This document shows, one piece after another, positions 18,393-43,827 of a DNA stretch of 64,000 nt. Source of the DNA: a virus (lineage: Duplodnaviria > Heunggongvirae > Uroviricota > Caudoviricetes). The stretch's first letter is position 1; each line of letters begins with the position of its first letter. The stretch lies in the IMG/VR virus record IMGVR_UViG_3300025429_000011, positions 18,527-82,526 of that record, one strand, 5' to 3'. Under the pieces are notes generated by a model. The model had not been told where the DNA came from, did not search any database, and saw only the letters and a list, made by a program, of their open reading frames with translations. Made by a program: the position numbers and the translations under genes.

Positions 18393-19331
18393 ATGAGTAC
18401 CTATCTTTTAAATGAATATATAGGTGCTGGTTATAGTGATGGTCTAATAATTCCACCTGCAGCACCGTCACAAATTATTTTTACTACAGTAGGTGCATAT
18501 TCATGGGCAGTACCACTAGGAGTAACTAGAATATGTGTTGTTGCAGTTGGGGGAGGTGGTGGAGGTGCAAATATAGCCAACGCTGGAGGAGGTGGCGGAG
18601 GTGGTTTAGTATATCTGAACAATTACACAGTAAAAGCTGGTGATATTGTTTCAGGAATCGTAGGAGATGGTGGTACAGCAAATACAGTAGGTGTTTCTAC
18701 TACAGTACTTGTTAATGGATCTAATATAATTACTGCTCAGGGTGGAAGTGGAGGATCTGGTACTGTTGGTGGATCGGGAGGAAGTGGTACTGGTATCTCA
18801 GGTATAGTTGCAAATTCAGGAGGAGCAGGAGGTAATTTTACTGGTTCTGGATCACCTTACGGTGCAGGTGGAGGTGGTGCTGCAGGTTATTCAGGTGCTG
18901 GAGGACGTGGTGGATTTTCATCAGGAAACTCTGGAGGTATAGCAGCTATTGCAGGTGCAGGAGGTGGTGGCGGTGGCGGGGGAGCTGCTTACAGTACAAA
19001 TAATACCGGTAGTGGTAGTGGTGCTGGAGGTGGTGGTGTTGGACTATTAGGTTCTGGTACAAATGGAACAGCTGGTACTCAAGGTTTTAGAAATACTCCT
19101 GTAAATCCTACTGGAGGCGGTGGTGGTTCAGGAGGAGCAGCTGGTACAAATGGCGGAGTTGTTAGTGCATCTGCTCCAGTTGGAGGAGCATACGGTGGTG
19201 GAGGCGGTGGTACACAGGGTGCTAACGGAAACCCTGCAGTTAACGGTAAAGGCGGGCAAGGTGCTGTAAGAATAATTTACGGTTATTCAACAGACACAAG
19301 AACATTTCCTTCTAATGCCGGGGATTTATAA
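18393..19331 (+). CDS. Glycine-rich domain protein, paralogous to the C-terminus of the 11656 fibre.
   Basis: AYSWAVPLGVTRICVVAVGGGGGGANIANAGGGGGGG ... GAVRIIYGYS matches the pattern of ..TYTTPGSVVWIRVRMIGGGGGGGGGG...GIIMIEEHYGS. Confidence 0.6.
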   Translation: MSTYLLNEYIGAGYSDGLIIPPAAPSQIIFTTVGAYSWAVPLGVTRICVVAVGGGGGGANIANAGGGGGGGLVYLNNYTVKAGDIVSGIVGDGGTANTVGVSTTVLVNGSNIITAQGGSGGSGTVGGSGGSGTGISGIVANSGGAGGNFTGSGSPYGAGGGGAAGYSGAGGRGGFSSGNSGGIAAIAGAGGGGGGGGAAYSTNNTGSGSGAGGGGVGLLGSGTNGTAGTQGFRNTPVNPTGGGGGSGGAAGTNGGVVSASAPVGGAYGGGGGGTQGANGNPAVNGKGGQGAVRIIYGYSTDTRTFPSNAGDL

Positions 19332-38536: not shown

Positions 38537-38788
38537 TTATTTTTTATAAAGCCAAGTATTAAATATATCTGCCATTTGACATACTTGTTCACTTGTCATA
38601 ATAACGCCGTTCACCTCATTGCCTGGTGATGCTACAAGTTCATTAATATGCTTACACCATTCAATAGACTTATCTAAAGCCCATTGACGATTCCAAATAC
38701 GATCTGCTTTCTCGCGACGAGCAATACTTTCTGGTGTTTCTTTTGGAACTTCAAATTCTTCATTCATTCTGTTACTACCTTTCTCCAT
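38537..38788 (-). CDS. Hypothetical protein.
   Basis: 83-aa ORF, last gene of the minus-strand block. Confidence 0.4.
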   Translation of the reverse strand: MEKGSNRMNEEFEVPKETPESIARREKADRIWNRQWALDKSIEWCKHINELVASPGNEVNGVIMTSEQVCQMADIFNTWLYKK

Positions 38789-39075
38789 TGACCATCTTTA
38801 CGTTTTAACCAAAGATCGCCATCATCACCTACTGCCATTGTTACTGCTTTATTAGGATCTGGTTGATGCATTCTCACTAATGATATTTTATATTGATCAG
38901 GATTATCAAATTGTGTCTTCTTCATTTCTGTAGTATCAACTTTAGATGCACCATTAAGAGTTATACTAAAAGCAGTATCTAAAGGTACACCATCTGCTGT
39001 TGCTGCTCTTGCTCCTTCAGCAACCAAAGCAAGAGGAGCTACAGGTAGGAATGCAAAGAAACTACGACGATTCAT
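38764..39075 (-). CDS. Small exported protein with a twin-arginine (Tat) signal peptide.
   Basis: MNRRSFFAFLPVAPLALVAEGARAATA carries the RRxFF Tat motif, a hydrophobic core and an AxA cleavage site. Confidence 0.55.
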   Translation of the reverse strand: MNRRSFFAFLPVAPLALVAEGARAATADGVPLDTAFSITLNGASKVDTTEMKKTQFDNPDQYKISLVRMHQPDPNKAVTMAVGDDGDLWLKRKDGQWRKVVTE

Positions 39076-40268
39076 TGTTTCACCTCCGGTAATGGTGCCT
39101 TAGGAGCTAATCCAATCAATGCATCAATCATTTGTGGAGTGACTACAATAGGCAATCCATGCTTATCCAAACCTGAACCAAGACCTTCTTGTACCTTAAG
39201 ACCAGCAACTGCCTGAAGAATAGGAAGTGCAGAAGCAAGCTTAGTAGCAATATAACGATCGTTAACAGCTTTCTGAACTGATTGATCAAACTCAAACGTA
39301 TCTGCCCATCCAATAAAGTCTAGAGTAATACCAACAGAAGCAAAGTATTCTTTTACGCTCTTTTGAATACTTTCCATCATAGGTACCATATCTTCATTAG
39401 CCTGATCAAATGTACGTTTGCCGATTTCAGCACAAACAAGTGTCTGAACCTTCTTACGGCCTACATCATCCATAACATTAGCCAATGAACGCCCATAATA
39501 AACAGATGTAAAGATTACTTGTGGATCATTACGATTACCTTGTTGTGGAACTACACCAAAGCGGTAAAGAAACTTAGCCGCATCAACTTCTGATACAGAT
39601 GCGCCAATAGAAACACCTGCTGTAATATTCAAACCTTCCTTTGATTGACAAGGAAATGATTGATCTGAAGAAGCAGTTCCACGATTAGCAGACTTTACCC
39701 ATTCACGAGAGTAGGGGGTACGATCAACAATAATCAAACGACCTGTAGGTACATAAAAGTCCCAATTCAAAAAGCCGCCTGAATTACTCAACTTAGCATG
39801 AGGAACAATAAAACGCTTTGCAGCAATCTTATTATCACTCAAATATGATTCAGAATCAAACTTGGCTTGAGTATCTTTGTTTGCACCAACATCTGGAATC
39901 CAGAATGCTGATTCATTAGGAAGAATTGTATATGCTTCTGTCTTGTCAACAGTATCAGCATATGCAAATGCCTGTTGAGGATGTGCAATTATCACAAGCA
40001 ATAACAGCGCAGTAGATGCAGCCAGAAATTCTTGAATTTTATTCTTCCAAATAGCAAACAGAGTAACAAAAAGCACTAGCGTTGAAATAAAATACACCGT
40101 GTTATTGATTGCAAAAACAAAACTCGTTGTAAGGTAAGTTGTTGTACTGTTATCAAATTGACTGCCTGCAACAGATCCTGTAATCAAAGTAGCCAAAGGA
40201 TTAACTATACTAATTATTGTCATATAGACAAAAAAAGTAATAGCAGTTTTAATAATATTGCCGATCAT
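39072..40268 (-). CDS. Membrane protein with N-terminal transmembrane helices and a large C-terminal domain (possibly SPFH/band-7-like).
   Basis: IIKTAITFFVYMTIISIV.., ..FISTLVLFVTLFAIW and ..LLLLVIIA are hydrophobic helices. The C-terminal region has an alternating beta/alpha pattern. Family assignment is tentative. Confidence 0.5.
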   Translation of the reverse strand: MIGNIIKTAITFFVYMTIISIVNPLATLITGSVAGSQFDNSTTTYLTTSFVFAINNTVYFISTLVLFVTLFAIWKNKIQEFLAASTALLLLVIIAHPQQAFAYADTVDKTEAYTILPNESAFWIPDVGANKDTQAKFDSESYLSDNKIAAKRFIVPHAKLSNSGGFLNWDFYVPTGRLIIVDRTPYSREWVKSANRGTASSDQSFPCQSKEGLNITAGVSIGASVSEVDAAKFLYRFGVVPQQGNRNDPQVIFTSVYYGRSLANVMDDVGRKKVQTLVCAEIGKRTFDQANEDMVPMMESIQKSVKEYFASVGITLDFIGWADTFEFDQSVQKAVNDRYIATKLASALPILQAVAGLKVQEGLGSGLDKHGLPIVVTPQMIDALIGLAPKAPLPEVKQ

Positions 40269-40291
40269 TATAAATGCTCCATTATAAAGCG

Positions 40292-41077
40292 TTACAGTTT
40301 AATTAAATCTTCTAGTTGATATTTCTGTGACATATAGCTAGAAACATTGTCTAAGACTGTTCTTTCTAAATCACCTTCACGTCTAGGATATTCATTAACA
40401 GTAAAGTCTACATTATTAACTTTTTTAAAAGCTCTAATAATAGCTCTTACTGTATAACCAATACCAGTACCTAAATTTTCCAAACCATTAGCAGGTTTGT
40501 CTATTGCTTTAATTAAAGCTTCACATATTTCGTTTACATGAACATAATCTCTAATACAAGTACCATCAGGTGTATTATAATCTGTACCGTAAAGATTAAA
40601 TTCACCGGTATTTGCAGCTTTAATTAAATTATAAAGAAGACCGTCCGGGTTAGTAGGAGGAAAACCATCAGTTCCTATTACGTTATAAAATCTAAAAATA
40701 GTATAATTAAGATCTTTTTTATTGCAAACTTCTTTTACCACATCTTCACATGCACGCTTTGAAAATGCATATGGATTATTAGGGCTAGATGCAGTCCCTG
40801 AAGAAGCAAAAATAAAATTATTATAAACAATCTTATTAAGTATATTAATTGTTCCACCAAGATTGTTATTATAATACTTAGAAGGTTCTTTAACCGATTC
40901 GTTAACCCTTACTAGTGCAGCAAGATGAATTACTGTATCTACAGAATAAAAAGTGAGTTTATCATTAATATCACCTTCATACTCTATTACTTCATACAAG
41001 TCATTATAATGTGAAAGCATCTTTACTAAATGCTGACCAATATAACCCTTACTGCCTGTAATAATAATTTTTTTCAT
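40292..41077 (-). CDS. NAD-dependent nucleotide-sugar epimerase/dehydratase (SDR family).
   Basis: Rossmann motif IIITGSKGYIGQHL and catalytic YxxxK (YAFSKRACE). Confidence 0.8.
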   Translation of the reverse strand: MKKIIITGSKGYIGQHLVKMLSHYNDLYEVIEYEGDINDKLTFYSVDTVIHLAALVRVNESVKEPSKYYNNNLGGTINILNKIVYNNFIFASSGTASSPNNPYAFSKRACEDVVKEVCNKKDLNYTIFRFYNVIGTDGFPPTNPDGLLYNLIKAANTGEFNLYGTDYNTPDGTCIRDYVHVNEICEALIKAIDKPANGLENLGTGIGYTVRAIIRAFKKVNNVDFTVNEYPRREGDLERTVLDNVSSYMSQKYQLEDLIKL

Positions 41078-41081
41078 TTAG

Positions 41082-41276
41082 TTAACGGATAACTTTCAAG
41101 TGATCAAAAACATAACCTGATGCTTTCAAGAATGTTTCAAATTGGCTTAACACAACATGAAGATTAGCTTCTGTAGCATCAAATGATATTTCTACTGTCT
41201 GGTCAGGATGATCATCCATTCCGCTGTTGACCATATCCATACGGAATGTGTATGTTACACTAAAATCGTCATTCAT
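41082..41276 (-). CDS. Hypothetical small protein.
   Basis: 64-aa ORF in the operon-like minus-strand array. Confidence 0.35.
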   Translation of the reverse strand: MNDDFSVTYTFRMDMVNSGMDDHPDQTVEISFDATEANLHVVLSQFETFLKASGYVFDHLKVIR

Positions 41277-41686
41277 AATATAAACTCCAAATGATCTTCT
41301 ACTACCTTAAAACGCACTGTTTGAGGATTGCCATTAATCTTAGTATAGTCTCTACCCCCATCAATAGCAACTTTATCGGCCGCACGATAATCATGACGGT
41401 ACCGACTATATACGACTTTCTCACCTAAAACAATACCGGTATACTCTACTTCTGTAGCTGAGATGCCATTAGCAATCATTAGATCACCATCCATATCAAA
41501 ATACAAACCAAAATAGTTAGAACCTTCTGGATGAGCTTTTTCTGTGTAGAAAATAGCACATGGAAAGTTGCCCCAGTCTCCACTCTTAAGTCTCAAACAC
41601 GAATCAAAGATATAAGTAGCATTATATTTCTCTTCTATTTTTGCTATAGAATCTGGTCTAAGAAATGATGAAGTGTCTATCCACAT
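41273..41686 (-). CDS. Hypothetical protein.
   Basis: 137-aa ORF with overlapping stop/start with its neighbours. Confidence 0.45.
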   Translation of the reverse strand: MWIDTSSFLRPDSIAKIEEKYNATYIFDSCLRLKSGDWGNFPCAIFYTEKAHPEGSNYFGLYFDMDGDLMIANGISATEVEYTGIVLGEKVVYSRYRHDYRAADKVAIDGGRDYTKINGNPQTVRFKVVEDHLEFIL

Positions 41687-41992
41687 TTATTTTTTCCTAT
41701 AGTACATTGTATAAATTTTTTCTAACCCAACTTTGTTCGGATGCTTATGAATCCATTGTCCTGTATATGGGCTAAACTCTTTTTGGAAGTACAAATCCAT
41801 TATATCGTTTTCTGTAGAAATGGCAATATTTATTTTAGATGCAAGTTCATCAAACTCAGCATCAGTCATAATAGAATCTGAATGTACTTCATAAGCATAA
41901 GCTGCTACTGATAATTTAATTCTATTTCGTCTTTCTATTTCAACCGGTGACCCCCAATTAGACTTAACTTCCATAAAGTCTTCTATACTCAA
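41687..41992 (-). CDS. Hypothetical protein.
   Basis: 101-aa ORF. Confidence 0.4.
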   Translation of the reverse strand: MSIEDFMEVKSNWGSPVEIERRNRIKLSVAAYAYEVHSDSIMTDAEFDELASKINIAISTENDIMDLYFQKEFSPYTGQWIHKHPNKVGLEKIYTMYYRKK

Positions 41993-42348
41993 GACATACC
42001 TACTATATGCTTACAGTTACGACGGAACATAAAAGCCTGACAAGTACAAGACTTATAATTCTCTCCTACAGTTACAATATAAGTATCACCTTTAGAACCT
42101 GTAACTGAAAAAGTGCGCTCTTTTACTGCTTCTGTTTTAAAAGAAGTAGCAGCACCATCCATTTCTATAATATCTTCTTTAGGTATGATACGAAACTTAA
42201 ACTTAGTATTTTCGCTTGTAGTAAGAGCAATAGCATCATACTCTACCCATTTAGGAGTAGCAACAAGCTCTCCTTCATAGGTATAGTAATTTTGTCCCAT
42301 TGTACGGTGAGAGTTTTTAACTGTAACTTTCATTGCTTTGACACACAA
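41989..42348 (-). CDS. SWIM-type zinc-finger protein.
   Basis: C-terminal KSCTCQAFMFRRNCKHIVGM matches the CxCxnCxH SWIM motif. Confidence 0.5.
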   Translation of the reverse strand: MCVKAMKVTVKNSHRTMGQNYYTYEGELVATPKWVEYDAIALTTSENTKFKFRIIPKEDIIEMDGAATSFKTEAVKERTFSVTGSKGDTYIVTVGENYKSCTCQAFMFRRNCKHIVGMS

Positions 42349-42515
42349 GTAATATAAGGATGTAAGGAAGCAAACTCTTTTGCGATCATTTTAGATGATA
42401 CTTCACAATGAGCTTTATCTTTTACTGGTGTCTCAATAGTTACTTTAGATTTCTCTACACCAGTAAAAGATAAAGATACAATCATAACTAGAACATAAGA
42501 CATATTAACGATCAA
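42330..42515 (-). CDS. Hypothetical small membrane-associated protein.
   Basis: 61-aa ORF with a hydrophobic N-terminus (MIVNMSYVLVMIVSLSF). Confidence 0.3.
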   Translation of the reverse strand: MIVNMSYVLVMIVSLSFTGVEKSKVTIETPVKDKAHCEVSSKMIAKEFASLHPYITCVSKQ

Positions 42516-42690
42516 TTGCTAAATCATGATAGTAGTCAGCTGCATCTCCAAGATACTCTTGAAGGCGGTTATCAATTTCTTCTGAATTACTACAAACTAT
42601 ATCATAGGCTTCAGACCAATCCATTAATGGATTTTTATCCATAAGTTCCTCGACCATCTTGTCAAGAATTTGAACCCATAGTTCTTTCAT
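42505..42690 (-). CDS. Hypothetical small acidic protein.
   Basis: 61-aa ORF. Confidence 0.3.
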   Translation of the reverse strand: MKELWVQILDKMVEELMDKNPLMDWSEAYDIVCSNSEEIDNRLQEYLGDAADYYHDLAIDR

Positions 42691-42693
42691 ATA

Positions 42694-43023
42694 TTACATG
42701 CTCCAGTAAGTTTCTTTCGAAGGATCACAAGCAAGAGGAGTAGAAGCAAGAATCGTAACATCCTTGCCGGTCATAAGGCTCTTAACAACCTTAGTACGAG
42801 TTTCTTCCGTATGCTGAGCCTTTGCTTTCTTAAGATGCAGCTTAGCATTACCAATCTTCAAACCCAACTTATGGCAGAGTTCAGAAAGAATAACTTCGTC
42901 GGTATCACCCTTACGAAGCGAACCCATGATAAAATTACGAACTTCATTCCGTTTATGACGCATTTGAGTATCTCCATTTCTCATCTTATAATTAATCATA
43001 GCGGTTTTAGGAAAATAATGCAA
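42694..43023 (-). CDS. Hypothetical protein.
   Basis: 109-aa ORF. Confidence 0.4.
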   Translation of the reverse strand: MHYFPKTAMINYKMRNGDTQMRHKRNEVRNFIMGSLRKGDTDEVILSELCHKLGLKIGNAKLHLKKAKAQHTEETRTKVVKSLMTGKDVTILASTPLACDPSKETYWSM

Positions 43024-43033
43024 CTGTTATTTT

Positions 43034-43405
43034 TTACCCTACCTTAACATAGCAAACTTCTTCGATATCAATAAAATCTTCCTTCACTTCATATTCATAG
43101 TTATCAGTACCGTCACCTAAAAACATTTTTTCACTATATCTCAATTCTTCCATAAACTTTTTATCAATTTTTTCTCCTACAAACTCAACAGATACGTAAC
43201 CAGAATCTTCAAACCGATACCAACCTTTTTTAGTAACTACTTCATTAATAGTATCAACATCACCACCAAAGAATTCTTCTGCCGACATACTACCTAATTC
43301 GAATTTATCCATAAATTCTTTTGCTAATTTGTTCATTTTCATCTCTCCATTTATCATATTATTATAATCGTATAAATCTGATATAAAATCTACTGTTTTT
43401 TTCAT
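43034..43405 (-). CDS. Hypothetical acidic protein, first gene of the minus-strand block.
   Basis: 123-aa ORF. Upstream of it lies the divergent control region. Confidence 0.45.
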   Translation of the reverse strand: MKKTVDFISDLYDYNNMINGEMKMNKLAKEFMDKFELGSMSAEEFFGGDVDTINEVVTKKGWYRFEDSGYVSVEFVGEKIDKKFMEELRYSEKMFLGDGTDNYEYEVKEDFIDIEEVCYVKVG

Positions 43406-43413
43406 AAAAACGC

Positions 43414-43500
43414 CATTGAAATCATTGAGTTTTTTTAGATCTAGCTAACTTATTGAAATCATTATACTTTTTATATCAAAAAAACTCAATGATTTCAATG
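43414..43500. promoter_or_regulatory. Perfect 23-bp inverted repeat (cattgaaatcattgagttttttt ... aaaaaaactcaatgatttcaatg) separated by ~41 bp, in the 166-bp divergent intergenic region. A third partial copy (tattgaaatcatta) sits in the spacer.
   Basis: Read directly. Arms at 43414-43436 and 43478-43500. It lies between the divergently transcribed blocks. Confidence 0.7.
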
Positions 43501-43571
43501 TCGTTTTTTTATAGATTTTATTATAAAAACATGCTATATTTAATTATAAGATAAAATAAAGGAGATAAAAA

Positions 43572-43772
43572 ATGACAAAACGTATTTTCGCCACTTTTGA
43601 CTTCGAGCACGAAACAGTTCTCGGCGACCTTTTAGACCTTTTATTCTGCTATCAAGGTAAAATTGAATCTTTTTTTCCTCGTGAAGATGTATGGGTTTTG
43701 ACTCTATCTTTTTCAGCAGAAAAAGAATTAAAAAGCTTTATAGAAGATTTAGGTCGTGATCCGATTTACTAG
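43572..43772 (+). CDS. Hypothetical small protein.
   Basis: 66-aa ORF with RBS aaaggagat 6 nt upstream. Confidence 0.45.
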   Translation: MTKRIFATFDFEHETVLGDLLDLLFCYQGKIESFFPREDVWVLTLSFSAEKELKSFIEDLGRDPIY

Positions 43773-43827
43773 TTGCTATTATTTTCAAAATACCGTATAT
43801 TAGTATTATGAGAAATGGAGAAGTGAA

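Follow-up and report, generated by a model that had tools for sequence, protein, structure and literature searches.

What does a large, perfect inverted repeat do when it lies where two blocks of viral genes diverge? The question is raised by a 64,000-nucleotide stretch of the IMG/VR virus record IMGVR_UViG_3300025429_000011 (positions 18,527 to 82,526; Caudoviricetes), referred to here as the window, in which two 23-nt arms, 43414-43436 and 43478-43500, are exact reverse complements of each other with 41 nt in between. A first reading of this DNA, made from its letters only and called the sequence-only reading below, took the repeat for an operator of a dimeric regulator or, equally, for a large cruciform or hairpin controlling both directions. 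Our analysis leads to a different answer. The repeat is a by-product of mirror-image copies of a 27-bp unit, and the region may be best understood as an array of three sites for a DNA-bending protein, most probably host integration host factor (IHF), which would fill about 100 bp between back-to-back early promoters.

The inverted repeat itself is real and far beyond what chance produces, and its arms and spacer proved to be exactly as the sequence-only reading had described them. No other perfect inverted repeat with a spacer of up to 100 nt is as long anywhere in the window; when the window was simulated 100 times with a first-order Markov model, the longest inverted repeat per run measured 10 to 15 nt and never more than 15. 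The symmetry widens to arms of 31 nt (43406-43436 and 43478-43508) if one mismatch is accepted. The partial third copy that had been noticed in the spacer is present at 43452-43472, between the arms and in direct orientation, with 81% identity to the left arm; the exact 15-mer that the same reading had proposed searching for has no second occurrence within the window. Folding energies, which had been suggested as a check, are indeed low: as single-stranded RNA the repeat has a predicted energy of -36.3 kcal/mol on either strand (z = -8.3), and as single-stranded DNA one of -26.3 kcal/mol (z = -8.4), the predicted DNA fold having a 34-nt open loop and an AT-rich stem. The second-longest inverted repeat of the window is a separate feature, with perfect 19-nt arms at 42413-42431 and 42457-42475 (CTTTATCTTTTACTGGTGT and ACACCAGTAAAAGATAAAG) and a 25-nt spacer, and sits within a small minus-strand open reading frame (ORF; 42330-42515).

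Relatives of the locus were located via the acidic ORF that flanks the repeat, and a wider search of IMG/VR used TTGAAATCATTGRRTTTTT, which matches more than 116 IMG/VR stretches, dozens of them holding clusters of two to four copies. An exact search of IMG/VR for the two-arm pattern gave zero matches. Absence of the motif from related phages had been named beforehand as an observation that would speak against a function, and the motif was found in every relative examined. What these sequences have in common is a tripartite unit of 27 bp, YAA-N4-TTGAAATCATTG-N2-T5-8, for which a weight matrix built from 89 unique clustered copies reads T-A-A-c-y-Y-a, TTGAAATCATTG, r-r-TTTTTT. The T tract was partly imposed by the search pattern; YAA was no part of it, and is found at exactly N4 in 80 unique sites, as against 3 to 10 sites each at spacings of 2, 3, 5, and 6.

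The units are combined freely into arrays, and copy number, orientation, and spacing all vary between relatives. Of the unique arrays, 46 in number, 27 hold direct copies only (all-direct) and the other 19 mix orientations, with neighboring units 24-28 or 33-38 nt apart and never 29-32. The related locus L001, whose flanking gene shares 97% amino acid identity with that of the window, has a window-like layout of two direct copies and one inverted copy, and L002 (78% identity) has three direct copies and none inverted. A perfect 30-nt inverted repeat is present in L111 and one with two mismatches in L001; where the arm flanks differ between the window, L001, and L111, the differences are not compensated on the other arm. 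Likewise, the flanks of the unit show no covariation, paired cells being at random expectation. As 27 of the 46 arrays are all-direct and the arm changes are uncompensated, neither a hairpin or cruciform nor a two-arm operator can be the conserved feature, and it is very probably the 27-bp unit, not the inverted repeat, that constitutes the functional element. The operator proposed by the sequence-only reading is thus upheld in that the units are most probably protein-binding sites, but not as a dimer spanning both arms, given the varying orientation and the all-direct majority; the large cruciform or hairpin controlling both directions is not supported, as the pairing that it would need is not conserved.

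Two arrangements seen among the matches may be recorded here in their own right. In another phage family, L182-L199 (about 37% GC), for example at 463-498 of L190, two units form a perfect palindrome, TAAGTCA-TTGAAATCATTG-N12-CAATGATTTCAA-TGACTTA, with centers 24 bp apart and with the YAA of the first unit serving as the stop codon of the upstream gene. In L101 (7474-7670), four tandem 61-nt repeats each hold one unit (GGCC-TTGAAAACATTG-GGGTTTTTGG) together with a CATAGAGATTCATAGA-like segment.

Within the window, the left arm (43406-43436, plus strand) resolves into site 1, with the core TTGAAATCATTG at 43416-43427 and seven T residues at 43430-43436, and part of the A/T tract upstream of a leftward promoter, P_L. 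Site 2, the former third partial copy, spans 43446-43472 on the plus strand and consists of TAA at 43446-43448, N4, the core TTGAAATCATTA at 43453-43464, and five T residues at 43468-43472. The right arm (43478-43508) is site 3 in mirror orientation, on the minus strand, with seven A residues at 43478-43484 and its core at 43487-43498 (CAATGATTTCAA on the plus strand); after this core comes the A/T tract upstream of a rightward promoter, P_R (GTCGTTTTT). The YAA element is found only in site 2 of the three, with sites 1 and 3 reading GTT.

The two promoters explain the symmetry. P_L (43364-43392, minus strand) is of the sigma-70 type, with the -35 box TAGATT at 43392-43387, a 17-nt spacer, and the -10 box GATTAT at 43369-43364, which is overlapped by TATAAT at 43366-43361 and followed by the ribosome-binding site (RBS) GGAGAG at 43348-43343. 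P_R (43512-43540, plus strand), also of the sigma-70 type, has the -35 box TAGATT at 43512-43517, a 17-nt spacer, the -10 box TATATT at 43535-43540, and the RBS AGGAG at 43560-43564. Their -35 regions, too, mirror each other (ATAAAATCTA at 43383-43392 and TAGATTTTAT at 43512-43521), and arms of 31 nt exist because the outer units are mirrored and each abuts the A/T tract of its promoter. As both promoters fire outward from the repeat, the repeat is not expected in their transcripts.

The distance between unit and promoter takes one of two values. The 13-nt gap between the site 3 core and the -35 box of P_R recurs in 22 promoters, 11 with forward and 11 with reverse units, and the gap in the remaining promoters is mostly 21-25 nt, chiefly 22-23; the window shows one promoter of each class, as 23 nt that hold the UP-like tract TTTTTATGAAAAAAACAG separate the site 1 core from the -35 box of P_L. 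With the -35 hexamer counted as positions -35 to -30, the core centers lie at about -54.5 for P_R and about -64.5 for P_L, which places them 10 bp, or one helical turn, apart. The center of the unit coincides with that of its 12-bp core, and consequently flipping a unit leaves its position relative to the promoter unchanged. Promoters between co-oriented genes likewise have a single unit or an array in front of them (L028, L030, L049, L061, L093, and L117), and L036 has one unit at a gap of 13 nt at several promoters. From this recurrence at a fixed distance from the -35 box before various promoters, it follows that the motif is a promoter-upstream module. The tracts between unit and -35 box, TTTTTATGAAAAAAACAG and GTCGTTTTTTTA, fit the A/T-rich criterion for an UP element, a site for the alpha-CTD of RNA polymerase, from -59 to -38 in fixed orientation, but the unit exceeds an UP element in having invariant G/C positions, in occurring in both orientations, and in having further upstream copies.

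The promoters belong to a strongly conserved cassette that flanks the arrays, seen in more than 30 loci, in which an A/T tract is followed by C(A/T)G, a -35 box TTGnnn (TAGATT in the window phage), 16-18 nt, a -10 box, a AATAATATGA-like segment, GGAG, and ATG. The P_L cassette is kept in relatives and P_R is kept in L001 and L111. A further promoter of the same cassette type (P2; TTGCTA-17-TATATT, 43773-43801, plus strand) has no motif copy upstream, so that promoter cassette and motif are separable modules. The T4-type late promoter motif TATAAATA occurs 6 times in the window against about 15 expected, always on the plus strand, and 4 of the 6 occurrences (19355, 27353, 30097, and 31748, plus strand) lie directly upstream of plus-strand structural genes. 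The window scan places none near the repeat region, which suggests that P_L and P_R are of the host sigma-70, and hence early, type. As an observation of its own, in L041, L046, L049, L093, and L109 the promoter cassette is followed by a conserved GTCGCTAGAAGACCAGGTAAAA in place of RBS and start codon (for example at 2552-2640 of L046, reverse strand); ARAGORN found no tRNA in this segment, which may be a small non-coding RNA.

Which protein could recognize such a unit? IHF has the consensus WATCARnnnnTTR with an optional tract of 4 to 6 A residues in the other half-site, and it kinks DNA twice, 9 bp apart, with WATCAR between the kinks (bioRxiv 10.1101/382655). The reverse complement of the unit is A6-N8-TTTCAA-N4-TTA, and the H' site of lambda attP, read from NC_001416, is AAAAAA-GCATTGCT-TATCAA-TTTG-TTG. 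Both are thus made up of an A-tract, 8 bp, a hexamer ending in TCAA, 4 bp, and TTR, in identical order and with identical spacings over about 27 bp; the T5-8 tract of the weight matrix lies 8 bp from the hexamer, as it does in H', and TTR at 4 bp is found across the unit set, although in the window at site 2 only. Degenerate units within arrays vary within TCATTG, which corresponds to the N8 segment of an IHF site, and keep YAA-N4-TTGAWW-N8-T-run, and some variant units (in L099, L007, L116, L025, and L011/L013) carry canonical TTGATA or AATCAA (reverse complement TATCAA / AATCAA). The core moreover holds TCAAT...TCAAT with a 9-bp period. If the kinks of H' are placed where Rice et al. in 1996 reportedly located them, both kinks of the unit would, by analogy, fall at the same CA/A step.

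We consider it somewhat better than an even chance, with a probability of roughly 55%, that three IHF-type architectural sites serve the two divergent early promoters, with host IHF as the candidate protein. It can be hypothesized that each unit is occupied shortly after DNA entry by host IHF, or by another factor with similar specificity, which would bend the DNA sharply at about -54.5 of P_R, at about -64.5 of P_L, and once more in between. The bends could bring the upstream A/T tracts toward RNA polymerase, or a compact nucleoprotein structure could form, and both early transcription units might be stimulated or coordinated as a result, in a parallel to the stimulation and coordination of early promoters by IHF at Mu Pe and lambda pL. 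Queries with approximate E. coli IhfA, IhfB, and HupA sequences gave no IHF/HU homologue by tblastn in the window or in the retrieved related loci, and the factor would accordingly come from the host.

Several observations weigh against this reading. The hexamer of the strict copies, TTTCAA, matches WATCAR at only five of six positions, with T for A at position 2, and the outer window sites have GTT where YAA/TTR would be expected. The invariant TCATTG segment is not accounted for by the generic IHF consensus; it lies within a stretch of 8 bp that is nearly invariant in the phage unit (CTCAATGA) and is one of its differences from H'. The units, which unlike H' form contiguous arrays, are often 24-28 bp apart, as against an IHF footprint of more than 25 bp and a crystal substrate of 35 bp, which makes simultaneous occupancy uncertain. 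In the attP of Rhizobium phage 16-3, discussed below, CAATGATT-like words recur several times and could be integrase arm sites there. Matches on E. coli plasmids are coding and chance-like, and the exact motif was not seen in non-coding E. coli plasmid DNA, which implies that E. coli IHF sites normally look different. Finally, the early timing of P_L and P_R, like IHF binding at the units, is predicted from sequence. A literature search for the 12-mer returned unrelated primers only, and one for IHF with 16-3 attP or for an alphaproteobacterial IHF consensus found nothing usable.

Additional insight is gained when the motif is followed outside this phage lineage. Viral contigs of 45-64% GC, in which hardly any match would arise by chance, also carry the 19-mer of the motif, for the most part between genes, and by manual count about 13 of 30 such high-GC sites also carry YAA at N4. 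There the unit adjoins large terminase (TerL) genes in L053 and L116 and Prim-Pol/AAA_25 helicase genes in L009 and L029, in L009 among CCTCCGG repeats. In Rhizobium phage 16-3 an inverted unit pair lies inside the annotated functional attP, about 30 nt past the end of the tRNA-like segment that bears the annotated att core. An inverted unit pair brackets a tRNA-3'-like segment beside int in the Autographiviridae genome of RHph_TM34 (L160), and two units, one reading TTGATATCATTG, bracket such a segment in Roseobacter phage CRP-212 (L163); both bracketed segments are likely to be unannotated attP sites. The presence of the unit in attP arms beside the core in 16-3, RHph_TM34, and CRP-212 is a further likeness to H'. 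In Rhizobium phage RHph_N65 (L161, 34880-35140), two units lie among 11 GCGGAGAT iterons directly downstream of a helicase/primase gene, in a cluster that looks like an unannotated iteron-type origin.

The unit is thus observed in attP arms, in iteron clusters, near terminase genes, and upstream of promoters, all of them classic settings for IHF. High-GC plasmid matches are alphaproteobacterial (Sinorhizobium, Rhizobium, Phyllobacterium, Methylobacterium, Azospirillum, and Ochrobactrum). This alphaproteobacterial spread, together with the occurrence in unrelated phages, speaks for a conserved factor of the host and against one specific to the phage. A search for direct 12-mer pairs in 185,579 bacterial and archaeal genomes gave 31 matches, all unrelated tandem or coding repeats, and thus no clue to the host. 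As a tentative extension that we hold to be possible but doubtful, the unit (YAA-N4-TTGAAATCATTG-N2-T6) could be an undescribed "super-site" for alphaproteobacterial IHF or another conserved host architectural protein, which the clade's phages and plasmids would reuse at attP sites, at origins, and at promoters, and which one lineage of large freshwater T4-like phages would have built into contiguous, promoter-locked arrays that enhance immediate-early transcription. Among the plasmids, Acinetobacter matches were also seen, in a record without annotation, and on Sinorhizobium meliloti plasmid pSmeMABNR56a (L200, around 34772) a unit lies just upstream of an unannotated ORF whose N terminus (...RSTIYREIRRN...) has a by-eye likeness to IS30-type transposases.

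The same observations have to be set against other explanations of the array. The units may bind a different sequence-specific protein, whether a phage early protein or a conserved host regulator, so that the array would be an operator or enhancer, perhaps one that shuts off or balances the two early promoters, and the likeness to IHF would be partly coincidental. Such a protein could account for a 12-bp core that is much stricter than generic IHF sites and deviates from WATCAR at one position in all copies; the 9-bp direct repeat in the core (ATTGA...ATTGA) is of the sort used by regulators that bind in tandem, small proteins would fit spacings of 24-28 bp more easily than IHF, and three sites between divergent promoters resemble phage switch regions. 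A phage-specific protein, however, fails to explain unrelated phages of 30-64% GC, plasmids, and attP, origin-like, and terminase contexts; the flanking genes are acidic or unannotated ORFans without DNA-binding domain matches, and no other regulator known to us would match the tripartite layout, with its A-tract and its YAA at a fixed spacing, as well as IHF does. We regard a different binding protein as rather unlikely. The array could also be part of a replication origin, in which a bent nucleoprotein structure forms by promoters whose transcripts prime replication, as modeled on T4 oriF/oriG and on IHF-assisted iteron origins. The unit does lie inside iteron clusters beside primase/helicase genes in RHph_N65 and L009, and the locus is AT-rich, holds three repeats, and coincides with a switch in transcription direction about 1.9 kb upstream of uvsY. 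Against an origin, the window has no initiator-type iterons other than the units and no initiator-like gene adjacent to them, units and arrays sit at several different promoters in related T4-like contigs, co-oriented genes included, with at least two loci on single contigs, and the position locked to the -35 box implies a transcriptional role; an origin at this locus seems improbable.

A recombinational origin of the pattern is conceivable as well. Promoter-early stem-loops (PeSLs) combine an early promoter and its AT-rich upstream region with a G/C-rich stem-loop that terminates upstream transcription, and they have been documented in T4-type phages (PMC2839356, PMC4122927). The window resembles them in its repeated, conserved sigma-70-type early promoters (P_L, P_R, and P2) with AT-rich upstream DNA before small ORFans, and its cassettes probably promote modular gene exchange. 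Units and cassettes might accordingly be PeSL-like substrates for the shuffling of ORFans, and the repeat a relic of inversion or duplication with no regulatory role of its own: closely similar promoter cassettes precede unrelated genes, the right-hand gene differs between the window and L002, and the ++- and +++ patterns could come from inversion between copies. Yet the defining G/C-rich terminator stem-loop is absent, the AT-rich repeat is not structurally conserved and lies between divergent rather than tandem genes, and the strict -35 distance, the rigid internal spacing, and the occurrence at attP sites and origins elsewhere would be left unexplained. As a full explanation this is very improbable, although PeSL-like recombination can coexist with IHF-type sites as a side effect. 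Least credible, to the point of being hardly tenable, is that the repeat acts as a structure, be it a cruciform in supercoiled DNA, an RNA hairpin, or a bidirectional terminator. The very stable predicted fold, the T-run after each arm on its own strand, and the perfect 30-nt version in L111 would agree with it, but pairing is not kept in the 27 all-direct arrays (L002 included) or across the window and L001, which differ by uncompensated changes, the stem is rich in A/T and its arms are 41 nt apart, the consensus scan shows no terminator-like site, and there is no Rfam match; with both genes reading away from the repeat, nothing needs terminating and an RNA form is unexpected.

Sites of an architectural protein upstream of phage early promoters are a known kind of element. 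At Mu Pe, in the Pe/Pc divergent region, and at lambda pL, an IHF site lies upstream of an early promoter used by host RNA polymerase. The window shares with them a site, here putative, for an architectural protein upstream of a strong early promoter with upstream A/T-rich DNA, and with Mu also the divergent setting, but it has three sites (at about -54.5, at about -64.5, and further upstream) and belongs to a lytic T4-like phage; we know of no such IHF dependence of early promoters in T4-type phages. The upstream region of rrn P1 consists of an UP element and three phased Fis sites and is similar in placing a UP-like A/T tract by the -35 box of a strong promoter and about three DNA-bending-protein sites further upstream. 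The window motif nevertheless misfits the Fis consensus (G and C 14 bp apart), and its sites are common to two divergent promoters. Lambda OR likewise has three related sites between divergent promoters, but the units described here are not pairs of palindromic half-sites, do not overlap the -35 or -10 boxes, are free in orientation and number, and turn up in unrelated phages in attP, cos-proximal, and origin-like settings. The unusual features are that a T4-like phage carries a very strictly conserved IHF-type unit in contiguous arrays locked to promoters, and that alphaproteobacterial phages reuse this unit at attP and origin regions.

Several simpler candidates were tried and rejected. A palindromic dimer operator does not agree with the 27 all-direct arrays, the spacings that vary between 24-28 and 33-38 nt, or the three direct copies of L002. 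An intrinsic bidirectional terminator is countered by a scan that finds no short G/C-rich stem with a 3- to 8-nt loop, and by the position of the repeat between two gene starts. A small hairpin in each unit (AACCCA...TGGGTT followed by the T-run) shows paired cells at random expectation. The unit as its own promoter, with TTGAAA or TTGAGT as -35, has no conserved -10 at the right distance, and the lone promoter-like match that reads into the repeat relies on degenerate sequence in copy 2 and is missing from L001. Sigma-54, Fis, CRP/FNR, CtrA, DnaA, LexA, and RirA do not fit when their consensus sequences are compared with the motif. Nor is strong net intrinsic curvature expected, as T-tracts 24-28 or 33-38 bp apart are mostly separated by non-integral numbers of helical turns.

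If host IHF does bind these units, a lytic T4-like phage would build its first promoters around a host DNA-bending protein, with arrays at fixed promoter distances. T4 itself relies on UP elements, ADP-ribosylation, and MotA/AsiA, and to our knowledge arrays of host DNA-bending-protein sites have not been described at T4-type first promoters. Early promoters, attP sites, and iteron origins of unrelated phages (30-64% GC) have the 27-bp unit in common, and IHF binding, if true, would annotate hundreds of intergenic regions in viral metagenomes. Should the "super-site" prove correct, it could provide a sequence-only marker for host prediction of uncultured phages, including the phage studied here. 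The locus is also a worked example of how a spectacular inverted repeat can be a mere mirror arrangement of independent sites.

The window comes from an uncultured T4-like myophage of 33% GC with a genome of about 229 kb, and its genes include those for a gp23-like capsid protein, UvsY, UvsW, a gp55-like factor, and gp46/47-like nucleases. By UvsW its nearest cultured relatives, at only about 54% identity, are Methylophilales phage Melnitz and cyanophages; an identical UvsY gene is carried by the 229-kb contig ena:ERZ27271955:k141_23248 and by several samples from JGI and the SRA. When the region was compared with 50,697 phage records by megablast and blastn, only chance matches and no homologous region came up, and tblastn of the flanking acidic ORF against cultured phages found no match. 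The repeat lies in a 230-bp divergent intergenic gap, with a block of small minus-strand genes on its left and plus-strand genes on its right, and the placement in a divergent control region by the sequence-only reading is borne out by the gene starts at 43336/43342 (minus) and 43572 (plus). Scans of the region for tRNAs, Rfam families, and terminators found nothing.

The first rightward gene (43572-43772, plus strand, ATG at 43572) encodes a 66-amino-acid ORFan. The first leftward gene (43034-43342, minus strand, ATG at 43342 or 43336) encodes a small acidic ORFan with a pI of 4.35 and 25 D+E in 100 amino acids. Proteins around the repeat are ORFans in general, with no DNA-binding domain matches and no initiator gene adjacent. 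No other gene accompanies the arrays as consistently as the acidic family, which directly adjoins them in 14 loci, always as the first gene and with transcription pointing away, and in L002 and L090 paralogues stand on both sides of the array. It has no Pfam or PHROG matches and might be a candidate immediate-early host-takeover or anti-defense protein. The minus-strand block to which it belongs (38537-43342) lies between the capsid gene and uvsY, where such a cargo is unusual, and encodes a small protein with a twin-arginine-like signal (38764-39075), a 398-amino-acid membrane protein, a 261-amino-acid protein with a by-eye likeness to GalE-type NAD-dependent epimerases, an Nlig-Ia domain protein, and a SWIM zinc-finger protein.

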